Below, in pieces: positions 10,940 to 17,990 of a DNA stretch of 18,204 bases. Position numbers and translations under genes: made by a program. The notes under the pieces are model-generated. The model saw only the letters and a program-made list of their open reading frames with translations, made no database searches and was not told the DNA's origin. Source of the stretch: a virus (Duplodnaviria; Heunggongvirae; Uroviricota; Caudoviricetes); IMG/VR virus record IMGVR_UViG_2547132272_000012. The stretch is one strand, 5' to 3'. The first letter of the stretch is position 1; the number at the start of each line of letters is the position of its first letter.

Positions 10940-13030
10940 TTATTGTTTTTTCACTTTGACCATGCCACGCCAGTCAAGCGGTGCCACTCCGGCATCAATG
11001 CGCACCTTGAATGCTGCACCATCAACCGTAAAGCCCTGTTGCTGCTCCAGATACGGCGTATCAATACCGTCGAGGTAAGCCACTTCAATCGTGTCACGCC
11101 CCTGCGCTGCCACCAGGTAATAATCCGTCGGGCTGCTGTCATCAAGGCGGGCCTCTGACAGAACCGTGGCAAAATTCTGAATCGGGTTAATAATGCCGCT
11201 GTTCGCATCTGCACCGGGCACGCTGGCAGACTTAATCAACTGATTGGCACGCGACTCAATGGCAACAGGCGTCAACATAAAAGCAGGACGAATGTTCAGG
11301 CGGCGGTCACCCGATTTCTGGAGCAGCATGGCTTTACGCCCGGAATCCAGCCCCTCAATAGACAAATCTGCAGTCACCAGGTTGCCATGATCTGCATGGA
11401 ACAGCGGTTTGCCATCCGACATTTTCGGATTGCTGGTCAGCACGGCCCAGACCAGATCACCCACGGTAGTCCGCGCTGCCGCCCCCATTGCCATCGGAAT
11501 ACGGGTCAGCATATCCAGGTCATCATTGATGATGGTCTGGCGATCAATGCTGAACAATTCGCCATAAGTCGCCAGTGCAATCGGTTCGCCACGATCTTTC
11601 AGGGTCACATATTTATATTCAGCCCCCGGCAATACTTTTCGTAGCGTCGGGAAAGTTTCCAGCCCGACACGATGCGCGGTTTTAAAATCAGTCAGCGTTC
11701 CCTTGCGGGTCCATTTGTCAAAATTTTCGCTGGCATCATCCCAGCCCTGCAACGCAGCTTTATGAGCCACATCCATCAGGATATTGCCGAAATCGCTGCT
11801 GCTGTGAGTAAATGCCAGCCCCACCATCGCCATCGGTGCGGAATGACCGGAGATACCGATACCGCGATCAACCAGCGAAGCACGCGCCAGCTCGCGCAGT
11901 GTAAAACCGTTATAAGCATTATCTTTTTCTGCTTCGGCATATCCGGCGCGTGCCATCACAGCCGCACGAATGGAATCGCCGACCAGATTACCGTTCCCGG
12001 CATGAATATGAACAGCGCCCGGGCCTGCACTTGGTGTCGTTCCGGCTGCCAGCGCCTGCAACAGTTTTTCACGGGCCTGTGCTTCCGTACAGGTCATGTC
12101 GTTCAGACACTCCGCTTTCAGTGCGGCATAAGACGGGAAAGAGGCAAAAACTGCGGTTACAGCCTGCACACGTTCCGCATTGGCTGCCATCAGTTGTTGC
12201 TGAACCTGCGAAGCAATTGCGCTGATATCCACATTTCCGGTTGATGGTGCCTGCTGAGCAGCGATCTGTTGCGCATTTTGCGGGGTTGCTTTCGGCTCCT
12301 GCGGCTGTCCGTTTGTCGTTTCTGCACGTGGAGCAAAAAGCGCGTTAATCTGTTCTGGCATATTATGGTAATCCTTCAGTTTATTTTGGTTCACACAGGC
12401 CGCAGCCTGTAATTCAGGTTCAAGCGTATCAGCGAAGCCTTTTTCCACGGCTTCAGCACCGTTCAGCCAGGTTTCTGCTTTCAGCATGGCTTCCAGCTCC
12501 TCCTGCCCGAGTCCGGTTTTATTCATGTAGGCTGACAGCATCAGCGCCTCGTTGCGATCCAGCCAGTCAGCATAATCACGCATATCATCGGAATCACCGG
12601 CGATCCCGCCCCACGGCTTGTGCACCATCAGCCAGGAATTTTCAGGCATATGCACTGTGGCGCCTGGCAGGCAGACAATCATGGAGGCCATGCTGGCTGC
12701 AACACCATCCACCCAGATATCCACCTTCGCTTTCAGCCGTGACAGCGTGTTAAAGATGGCAAACCCCTGCATCACATCACCGCCCGGGCTGTGGATATGC
12801 AGATCAATAGCGCTGGCCTCAAACACCCCCGCATCCTTACAGTCAGCAATAAACTGCTGCGCGGTGATGCCCCATCCGCCAATCACGTCATAGAGGTAAA
12901 TTTCCACCCGCCCGGCAGTCTGTGCACGGATTTCATACCAGCACTGACCATTAGCGGCATCCACCCCCGCAAGGCTGGCGCGGGGATTAATCATCGTCCC
13001 GCGAAGACGCGGGTTTATCATTTGCTGCAT
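10940..13030 (-). CDS. Fused prohead protease (ClpP/S49-like) - scaffold - major capsid polyprotein
   Basis: 696-aa ORF. N-terminus (HIHSPGGDVMQGFAIFNTL...DIWVDGVAASMASMIVCLPG...HMPENSWLMVHKPWGG) looks like a ClpP/S49 serine protease fold; the middle is Ala/Gln-rich; the C-terminal ~300 aa is capsid-like. ATG 13030 has AAGGAG 9 nt upstream and overlaps the portal 3' end by 44 nt. Confidence 0.8.
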   Translation of the reverse strand: MQQMINPRLRGTMINPRASLAGVDAANGQCWYEIRAQTAGRVEIYLYDVIGGWGITAQQFIADCKDAGVFEASAIDLHIHSPGGDVMQGFAIFNTLSRLKAKVDIWVDGVAASMASMIVCLPGATVHMPENSWLMVHKPWGGIAGDSDDMRDYADWLDRNEALMLSAYMNKTGLGQEELEAMLKAETWLNGAEAVEKGFADTLEPELQAAACVNQNKLKDYHNMPEQINALFAPRAETTNGQPQEPKATPQNAQQIAAQQAPSTGNVDISAIASQVQQQLMAANAERVQAVTAVFASFPSYAALKAECLNDMTCTEAQAREKLLQALAAGTTPSAGPGAVHIHAGNGNLVGDSIRAAVMARAGYAEAEKDNAYNGFTLRELARASLVDRGIGISGHSAPMAMVGLAFTHSSSDFGNILMDVAHKAALQGWDDASENFDKWTRKGTLTDFKTAHRVGLETFPTLRKVLPGAEYKYVTLKDRGEPIALATYGELFSIDRQTIINDDLDMLTRIPMAMGAAARTTVGDLVWAVLTSNPKMSDGKPLFHADHGNLVTADLSIEGLDSGRKAMLLQKSGDRRLNIRPAFMLTPVAIESRANQLIKSASVPGADANSGIINPIQNFATVLSEARLDDSSPTDYYLVAAQGRDTIEVAYLDGIDTPYLEQQQGFTVDGAAFKVRIDAGVAPLDWRGMVKVKKQ

Positions 13031-16839: not shown

Positions 16840-17339
16840 TATTCGTCCTCCTGATTTTCCTCCTCTGTATCTTCCTGTTTGCTGTCATCTGCCACCCGCC
16901 GCGCAATTTCGTCACGCAAATCATCAATAATGCTTTGCACCCGCATGACAGCCGAAGGCTCGAGAGCGCAATCGCGTTCAAGAATATCGGGGAGAGTTTC
17001 CAGAACCTGCACCATAGCCTTTGCCATTTCAGCAAATTCACGGGCGACATCAGACGCAGGGATCAGTTCTCCGACCTCCTGTTCAAATTTCAGACGTTCC
17101 CGTTCTGACTGATACCAGGCTTTTCGGTCATGGGGATCCATTTCCCCTTCAGCGACAGGCGGTGGCAACTTCATTAGCTCTGCCAGAATATCAGTAAGTT
17201 TATACAGCTTGAGGTTACTCTCATGCCCACCCGCTGTTCGGACATTTTTGATTCTTGATGCGACAGTCTGTCGGTGCACACCCGACAGCGCAGCTAACTG
17301 GCTGACATTAAGAACAAGGTGTTTCAATTCCTTATCCAC
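16839..17339 (-). CDS. Terminase small subunit (Nu1-like, N-terminal HTH)
   Basis: 166-aa ORF directly upstream of and overlapping terL; N-terminal helix-turn-helix-like VSQLAALSGVHRQTVASRI and acidic C-terminus; GTG start 17339 with GGAGG 5 nt upstream. Confidence 0.7.
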   Translation of the reverse strand: MDKELKHLVLNVSQLAALSGVHRQTVASRIKNVRTAGGHESNLKLYKLTDILAELMKLPPPVAEGEMDPHDRKAWYQSERERLKFEQEVGELIPASDVAREFAEMAKAMVQVLETLPDILERDCALEPSAVMRVQSIIDDLRDEIARRVADDSKQEDTEEENQEDE

Positions 17340-17350
17340 TTACCCCTCCA

Positions 17351-17433
17351 GTGATGAACAAAAAACAAACATTTTCGACACCAGCTATTTTTTAACCTTT
17401 CATTATCAATAAATTACAGTGGTGGTGATGAAC
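17351..17433 (-). promoter_or_regulatory. cosB-like element: two GTGATGAAC direct repeats flanking an IHF-consensus site
   Basis: GTGATGAAC occurs at 17351-17359 and 17425-17433; between them, TATCAATAAATTA (17404-17416) matches the IHF consensus WATCAANNNNTTR. The layout resembles lambda cosB just upstream of Nu1. Confidence 0.4.
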
Positions 17434-17591
17434 GATGAAAATGCAAAAATTTGGCGATTTCTGCGCATCCGTATCCCCTCGGTGTTCTAAATTCCAGGAA
17501 GGACCCGTGAAAATGGGAGCAATTATCATTTGCATACACTCCAACACCTACATTATCGCAGCCCCTCGCTGAAGAGCTGCTGTAATGCCTG

Positions 17592-17990
17592 TTACTCACG
17601 AATCAGGCGAGCACTCTTACCATTCATTTCAATACGCGAATACTGCGGTTTACCATCAATGATGTCTGTCATCACGAACATCTCACCCGGCTGCAGTTCA
17701 ACTACTGCGCCTTCCGGCAATTCCATGCAGGCAAATACCGGACAGCCCGGATAACGACCATCTTCTGTTGCTTCCAGCATTGACTCACCAAACCACTCCG
17801 TCATGGCGCGACCATCAGCTGCTTTGTAGTGGATCAAGTACTGGTTTTCACTACCTGCATACTGAGCACGCCCCCTCACTTCCCCCCATTCATCACTGAT
17901 ACGTACCTCCACCAGTTGTGACAACTCAAACTTAAACGGAACAGCAGCGGTACCAATTACAATCGGTTTGCTTTCTGTTTTTTTCATCAT
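17592..17990 (-). CDS. Hypothetical protein (unknown function) upstream of terminase
   Basis: 132-aa ORF MMKKTESKPIVIGTAAVPFKFELSQLVEVRISDEWGEVRGRAQYAGSENQYLIHYKAADGRAMTEWFGESML...; AGGAG 3-6 nt before tandem ATGs; no transmembrane segment or signal peptide evident; no family confidently recognised. Confidence 0.55.
   Translation of the reverse strand: MMKKTESKPIVIGTAAVPFKFELSQLVEVRISDEWGEVRGRAQYAGSENQYLIHYKAADGRAMTEWFGESMLEATEDGRYPGCPVFACMELPEGAVVELQPGEMFVMTDIIDGKPQYSRIEMNGKSARLIRE

Follow-up and report, generated by a model that had tools for sequence, protein, structure and literature searches.

The 252-bp spacer upstream of the small terminase gene terS in the DNA studied here (18,204 nucleotides, called the window below) is very probably, at a probability of about 85%, the cos site of a lambdoid prophage whose head genes are of the Gifsy-2/mEp460/cdtI/yong2 type. 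The spacer (17340-17591) extends from the GTG start codon of terS, at 17339 on the minus strand, to the stop of a 132-aa open reading frame (ORF) at 17592. The initial annotation had described an AT-rich intergenic region of about 250 bp, and its composition bears this out, with a G+C content of 42% compared with 54% for the whole window. The cos elements, like all of the genes in this region, lie on the minus strand. Read in that direction, and with the terminase genes that follow, the features are these.

17506-17500, minus strand: cosQ heptamer GGGTCCT, identical to lambda cosQ.
17482-17461, minus strand: cosN region CCGAG-GGGATACGGATG-CGCAG, placed by gapless homology to known cos sites.
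17477-17466, minus strand: predicted 12-nt 5' cohesive end GGGATACGGATG, placed by homology.
17460-17434, minus strand: I2-like spacer with A/T tracts, AAATCGCCAAATTTTTGCATTTTCATC, which aligns with lambda I2.
17433-17419, minus strand: R3 box GTTCATCACCACCAC, which is the repeat at 17425-17433, at a conserved position.
17416-17404, minus strand: I1 IHF site, TATCAATAAATTA on the plus strand, an exact match to the consensus.
17382-17372, minus strand: R2 box, inverted, GGTGTCGAAAA (reverse complement TTTTCGACACC), between the IHF site and R1.
17359-17348, minus strand: R1 box GTTCATCACTGG, which is the repeat at 17351-17359.
17339-16839, minus strand: terS, 166 aa, GTG start; Pfam DUF1441, E value 4e-46.
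17339-17199, minus strand: terS codons 1-47, putative helix-turn-helix (HTH) and wing (..NVSQLAALSGVHRQTVASRIKNVRTAGGHESNLKLY), proposed reader of the R boxes.
16839-14722, minus strand: terL, 705 aa, lambda gpA family; Pfam GpA_ATPase 1.5e-78 and GpA_nuclease 1.2e-88.

The genes next to the spacer agree with the lambda-type terminase that the initial annotation had supposed. TerS matches PHROG 141 ("terminase small subunit") at 4.7e-70 and PHROG 57 at 6e-13 over its full length, and lambda Nu1 matches PHROG 57 at 1.3e-76 and PHROG 141 at 5.6e-8. These reciprocal cross-hits make TerS and lambda Nu1 distant homologues. Many HTH families match TerS below threshold, in every case at residues 10-37, and hhalign places residues 10-54 on Nu1 residues 3-49, weakly, with a probability of 21%; we take this part of Nu1 to be its HTH and wing. 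A profile search of TerS against PDB sequences gave nothing significant, and a single-sequence AlphaFold model (pLDDT 55.7) was too poor to use for the fold. Pfam lists DUF1441 as a family of unknown function. TerL, a gpA-family protein, is the enzyme that would nick cosN. Downstream of terL lie genes for a head-tail adaptor, a lambda-family portal and a ClpP-capsid fusion, and the terS, terL, portal and capsid ORFs are full length in the window. The fusion is a single 696-aa ORF (10940-13030, minus strand) with ClpP-type protease and capsid-protein domains, an arrangement reported for Gifsy-2-like heads. In relatives, lysis genes are found upstream of cos.

Two other kinds of packaging site were considered and rejected. 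A headful (pac) site does not fit a TerL that is of the gpA family and not of a pac type (e.g., Terminase_3/6, P22- or T4-like), nor the presence of cosQ and cosN homologues. A cos of the HK97/phiP27 type, with a 3' overhang and an HNH gene beside terS, does not fit a gpA-type TerL and an upstream ORF that has no Pfam domain. With phiP27 the window has in common only this upstream 132-aa gene; the HNH-side gene L34, the cos and the terminase of phiP27 differ. The 132-aa ORF (17592-17990, minus strand) matches PHROG 1935, of unknown function, and phiP27 L33. In phiP27 the gene precedes an HK97-type packaging module, so it travels independently of terminase type.

To the right of the predicted cohesive end, the spacer is laid out like a lambda cosB. 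The initial annotation had based such a layout on two exact 9-bp repeats, at 17351 and 17425, flanking an IHF consensus at 17404-17416, and both observations hold. The window (18.2 kb) has exactly two copies of the repeat GTGATGAAC, at 17351-17359 and 17425-17433 on the plus strand; these are R1 and R3, respectively, and R3 is the proposed, putative primary binding site for TerS. The sequence TATCAATAAATTA fits the IHF consensus WATCAANNNNTTR, which has 2 matches in the window where 0.56 would be expected window-wide. The count of two boxes was incomplete, in that a third, inverted box had been overlooked: R2 (also written GGTGTCGAA) matches R3 and R1 at 7 of the 9 core positions, and its GTGTCGA is highly conserved. 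The full order is R3-I1-R2(inverted)-R1, three related boxes with the IHF site between R3 and R2, and the order in lambda cosB is R3-I1-R2-R1, also with an inverted R2 (PMC4669245, PMC9026076). A conserved T-tract (17360-17370) precedes R1, which abuts the terS ribosome-binding site GGAGGGG (17343-17349). In the searchable literature, nothing was found that describes R boxes for DUF1441-type terminases.

Taken by themselves, the repeats carry little weight. When the 252-bp spacer is shuffled with its dinucleotides preserved, an exact 9-bp direct repeat arises by chance in 10.6% of cases, which is not significant, and an IHF consensus in 2.8%; the two arise jointly in 0.44%, so that even the combination is only modestly unlikely by chance. 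If the boxes were a chance pattern in an AT-rich spacer, the first two figures would be unsurprising and the third less so, but relatives that are only 50 to 70% identical here would not be expected to keep the position, the orientation and the type-matched co-variation of the boxes, as they do. A chance origin is effectively refuted by these comparative data and has become scarcely credible. It is because the cosB elements are conserved and co-vary in relatives that we judge them to be real.

The relatives were collected by a TerS search of IMG/VR, which gave 80 loci; with phi458, Fels-1, CP-1639, Chris1 and Kp4865-4 added, these represent 68 distinct upstream sequences. Element order is kept in 68 of 68. 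The R boxes switch jointly, all three being of a CATCACC type (R3 TTCATCACC, R2 reverse complement TTCGACACC, R1 TTCATCACT) or all three of a CATCATC type (CATCATC / TTCGACATC), with R2 reading ACACC or ACATC in step with R3 and R1. The box type tracks the type of the 47-residue TerS N terminus without exception (43 CATCACC, 25 CATCATC), one odd row in the table of types being a regular-expression artifact. The CATCACC boxes partner TerS proteins that read ..SG(V/A)HRQT..GG(H/N)xxNLKLY, and the CATCATC boxes partner those that read ..LHRQT..GGHDKLKLY or PGSNxxxKLY. This co-variation is seen directly, as are the elements themselves, their spacing and their conservation. Conservation of the repeats in relatives had been set beforehand as a test of the initial annotation; they are not only conserved but also co-vary with the DNA-binding end of TerS, which supports the R-site/IHF-site/R-site layout it had proposed. 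The IHF site is found with at most one mismatch, at the same position and in the same orientation, in 66 of the 68 relatives, where shuffles predict 12%, and as the exact consensus in 27 of them, where shuffles predict 0.6%. Its four N positions vary freely, and the consensus positions are kept.

Since the relatives share descent, such conservation counts are not independent events, and the independent evidence is a pair of cassette swaps. Between the window and L014/L015, identity is 82-90% in cosQ-cosN-I2, falls to 50-52% in cosB and 67% in terS codons 1-47, and is 97-98% in the rest of terS and 98% in terL. Between L034 and L043, the corresponding values are 94.5%, 62%, 74%, 94% and 98%. 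These profiles argue that, in two separate lineages, cosB and the TerS N-terminal domain have moved together as a single cassette.

The same elements could be viewed as a regulatory region, in which the repeats and the IHF site are operators and a promoter for terS and the late operon. Promoters often contain IHF sites, and as R1 abuts the terS Shine-Dalgarno sequence, bound TerS could damp its own translation. Nevertheless, the region holds no sigma-70-like promoter or terminator, no Rfam family matches in the window, the boxes are at fixed distances from the cosQ and cosN homologues, and it is the DNA-binding end of a terminase subunit, not any regulator, with which they co-vary, so we consider this view very unlikely. 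In lambdoid phages, transcription of the late operon starts at a late promoter upstream of cos and passes through it. A regulatory role of R1 beside packaging is possible; it would leave the fixed cosQ/cosN geometry unexplained.

Under the cos reading, the spacer should also contain a site at which terminase nicks. The initial annotation could not find a convincing cosN, a view that we revise, as a probable one can be placed in the same spacer by ungapped homology to lambda, cdtI, phi458, LLS and yong2. Specifically, no gaps are needed to align the cosN region with lambda CG-GGGCGGCGACCT-CGCGG, with the first bases of the cdtI record (GGGCGGGAGCGT) or with the annotated cohesive end of LLS. 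Alignment to the cos sites of related phages, which that annotation had put forward as a check, is thus gapless both for lambda and for lambdoid phages with the same small-terminase family. On its left, the predicted cohesive end is separated from cosQ by 22 nt in the window, phi458, yong2 and L014, compared with 23 nt in lambda, where cosQ is the packaging-termination signal. On its right, CGCAG and then an A/T-tract segment (17465-17434) are the counterpart of lambda I2, the A/T-tract spacer whose role is described in PMC4856287, and the ATTTTTGCATTTT core of this spacer is widely conserved among relatives. Measured from the CGC of the right flank, the core of R3 lies 35 nt away in both the window and phi458, 34 nt away in yong2 and 40 nt away in lambda.

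Because the nick positions of lambda were measured from cosB (PMC4856287) and the distance to R3 is conserved here, we place the predicted bottom-strand nick between 17466 and 17465. On the top strand, the nick would most likely lie 12 nt to the left of it. Alternatively, the end may be 14 nt long, starting after the conserved CG at 17481-17480. We rejected a 12-nt end directly after the conserved CCG (AGGGGATACGGA), as the nick would then shift by 2 bp from its R3-relative position in phi458 and cdtI; this left-anchored 12-mer is also at odds with the boundary of the yong2 record. A 2-bp insertion in the cosN of the clade was ruled out, since the intervals between cosQ and the end and between the end and R3 are ungapped and show no indel.

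In lambda-like sites, the cosN 12-mer starts with GGGC (PMC9303873) and has CG flanks (PMC4669245, PMC9303873), and its left half is conserved while its right half is variable (PMC4669245, PMC9303873). The window has the right-flank CG and the GGG start, but its left flank is AG instead of CG and its 12-mer begins GGGA instead of GGGC; a CG is present 2 nt farther left of the AG flank. No dyad symmetry is obvious on reading the window cosN. Judged on these features, it departs mildly from the canonical lambda-like form. Across the clade of the window, cosN reads CCG[A/G]G-GGGAT[A/G]C[G/A]GA[T/C][G/A]-CGCAG, with a left flank of AG or GG and an A as base 4. The GGGAT start and the flanks are invariant, and the variable positions of the 12-mer are 6, 8, 11 and 12, a pattern that would be expected under selection. 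In the wider clade, the cosN of other members reads GGGG...

The departures from the canonical form raise the question of whether this cos is a relic, homologous to a working site but itself no longer working, with the AG flank and the GGGATA left half as decay in a defective prophage. The positions at which cosN differs are reported as constrained (PMC4669245, PMC9303873), and some relatives are damaged. The nearest E. coli copy, in strain E10 (L008, 3763-4528), is in a truncated prophage, defective or chimeric, in which terL breaks off after ~650 bp and is joined to P2-like baseplate/tail genes. In the prophage relative CP-1639 (L090, ~405-425), cosN is 2 bp shorter, CACG-GGGCGGGCGG-CGCGG, with 10 nt between the flanks compared with 12, and may be a decayed site. 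Decay would not, however, be expected to produce variation in the right half beside an invariant GGGAT start and invariant flanks on both sides, the pattern seen in 10 IMG/VR contigs and in several copies from E. coli. Moreover, the packaging and head genes of the window are intact, which suggests function, and the same class of cosN is found in yong2, which was deposited as a linear phage genome. We therefore think it improbable that the site is a relic.

The induced Hafnia phage yong2 (MZ516527), whose TerS is 67% identical to that of the window, gives the best outside evidence on where the end lies. Its linear record ends with ...CCGAGGGGGCAGCGACA, the full tail being ...GGGTCCT-(22 nt)-GGGGCAGCGACA, and begins with CGCGGG, CGCGGGAAACGG... 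By alignment, the break in the record coincides exactly with the position homologous to the lambda bottom-strand nick, and the cosN there belongs to the same AG-flank class (CCGAG-GGG...), although what this boundary means depends on how the depositors set the ends of the record. The paper on yong2 (Pan et al. 2022, Curr Microbiol 79:50) is said to give GGGGCAGCGACA as a fixed terminus. A scan of IMG/VR for cosN of the window type found 10 contigs, and in 0 of the 10 was the site at the listed locus or contig end, which is uninformative on termini. In species-representative genomes, the clade pattern of cosN and I2 has 4 matches, namely two in Scandinavium, one in Tatumella and one in another Enterobacteriaceae. 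Two further kinds of record were discarded as sources of cohesive ends: those of mEp460 and Ayreon begin at the terS start or slightly before it, which is an arbitrary point, and that of mEp460_4F5 starts 5 nt before the canonical 12-mer and is uninformative.

Variation is also seen at cosQ. GGGTCCT is found in most of the 68 relatives, and a subset has GGTACTC in its place, equally far from cosN, including L004 (Fels-1, ~1902-1908), L091 (Chris1, ~431-437) and L017-L019, L022-L028, L031 and L032, where it is 21 nt upstream of the end. Natural cosQ variation has been stated as not apparent (PMC4669245), and GGTACTC looks like a natural cosQ variant. Directly upstream of cosQ in the window is AAATGATAATTGCTCCCATTTTCAC (17507-17531, minus strand), and many relatives share ATGATAAT...CATTTT. 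The sequence resembles lambda GATGATAATCATTATCACTTTAC at the same place. It is probably dispensable, given its absence from the common mEp460-type loci of E. coli.

At the far end of the spacer, just past the stop of the 132-aa ORF, there is a stable hairpin, GCAGCTCTTCAGCGAGGGGCTGC, with a 10-bp stem (17550-17585, minus strand). It is also present in L004 (1509-1545), L005 (~1501-1556), L006 (~1010-1050) and L113 (~310-350), and its identity exceeds 90% across Fels-1, phiP27, phi458 and many E. coli prophages that otherwise differ around it. The hairpin is at a mosaic boundary, and in some relatives an insertion of ~145-560 bp separates it from cosQ. Possible roles are those of an mRNA 3' hairpin or of a recombination joint. 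Part of the cosN region, CACCGAGGGGATACG (17470-17484), is 80% identical to the 3' arm of the hairpin, CAGCGAGGGGCTGCG (17557-17571), which is probably due to chance.

Among the closest known systems is lambda itself. The window shares with it an identical cosQ, the same subsite order and orientation, including the inverted R2 and the IHF site between R3 and R2, an A/T-tract I2, a terS that follows directly and a gpA-family terL (PMC4669245, PMC9026076, PMC4856287). The differences are that the TerS of the window is a DUF1441 protein and only a distant homologue of Nu1, that its R boxes (TTCATCACC) are unrelated in sequence to the CGTTTCC-type boxes of lambda, and that its cosB is more compact, terS starting at about +139 compared with +191 and R3 lying closer to the end, in addition to the AG flank and GGGA start of cosN. 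Between lambda and phage 21, cosB and the recognition helix of TerS co-evolve and set packaging specificity, while cosQ and cosN are shared (PMC4669245). The group of the window likewise pairs two R-box types with two TerS N termini around a shared cosQ-cosN-I2, although here specificity is read from sequences alone, and the TerS subfamily is a different one. The cos of N15 is lambda-like as well and follows the same logic in cosQ and cosN (PMC4669245). However, its cosB is simple, with a single R3 and a remote rR2 inside terS, unlike the complex three-box cosB with an IHF site found here.

The phages cdtI, LLS/mEp213 and yong2 and the cyanophage Cr-LKS3 have a TerS of the same family as that of the window. 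The cdtI and LLS records begin at a 12-mer homologous to GGGATACGGATG, which LLS annotates as its cohesive end; unlike that of the window, the ends of cdtI, LLS and mEp213 are GGGCGG... with CG flanks. Within the DUF1441 TerS group, cohesive ends have been reported only for LLS/mEp213, where they were inferred, and for Cr-LKS3, where 5' cohesive ends of 9 nt were found experimentally (PMC9303873). Given the 9-nt end of Cr-LKS3, end length varies in this TerS family. The ends of this distant relative and the boundary of the yong2 record lend indirect support to the prediction that virion DNA has complementary 5' single-stranded ends made at cosN. As far as they were searchable, the papers on the ends of cdtI, LLS, mEp213, yong2 and Cr-LKS3 gave no description of R boxes. 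Published statements on the cosB of Gifsy-1 were set aside as a precedent, because the portal-to-capsid genes of Gifsy-1 are of the lambda/21 type and its TerS is not of this subfamily; Gifsy-1 is absent from the 60 phage records that match the TerS of the window.

Taken together with what is established for lambda, the arrangement of the spacer suggests how packaging would proceed. Protein binding, the nick positions and function in this prophage are predicted here from homology; for TerS at the R boxes and IHF at I1, the prediction of binding also draws on the co-variation of the boxes with the TerS N terminus and on the kept IHF consensus. A TerS dimer would bind the 9-bp R3 and the inverted R2 through its N-terminal HTH, as its homology with lambda indicates. 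IHF bound between R3 and R2 would bend the DNA and bring both boxes together, and R1 would provide additional TerS binding. The bound TerS would anchor the gpA-type TerL on the far side of the A/T-tract I2, about 35 bp to the left, and TerL would make staggered nicks in cosN that leave 5' cohesive ends, most likely the 12-mer GGGATACGGATG. Packaging would then proceed rightward through terS, terL and the head genes and would stop at the next cos, where cosQ (GGGTCCT) and cosN would be read.

A cos site is a well-known and ordinary kind of element; the cosN of this one is mildly unusual, and it involves no new mechanism. We put forward one broader proposal tentatively, with the odds somewhat against it. 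The clade that comprises the window, L010-L030, Chris1 and yong2 could be a natural exception to the lambda-like cosN rules, nicked at an AG, GG or TG flank to give the 12-nt GGGATACGGATG or nicked after CCG to give a 14-nt end, with part of the clade having GGTACTC as cosQ; cosB and the first 47 TerS codons could be a recombining cassette with at least two mutually exclusive packaging specificities. If true, this would offer a natural system for the evolution of nick-site and recognition specificity in terminases.

The cos reading locates the packaging site in a common group of enterobacterial prophages, those with a DUF1441 small terminase and Gifsy-2-like head genes, and it provides concrete predicted genome ends for this prophage. 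It also gives a sequence-level account of packaging specificity in which the R-box type is matched to the N terminus of TerS. These predictions may be of use in annotating the ends of prophages and in predicting which phages or satellites could be packaged together. Finally, the natural cosN and cosQ variants described here would allow the published rules on the positions that terminase needs to be tested.
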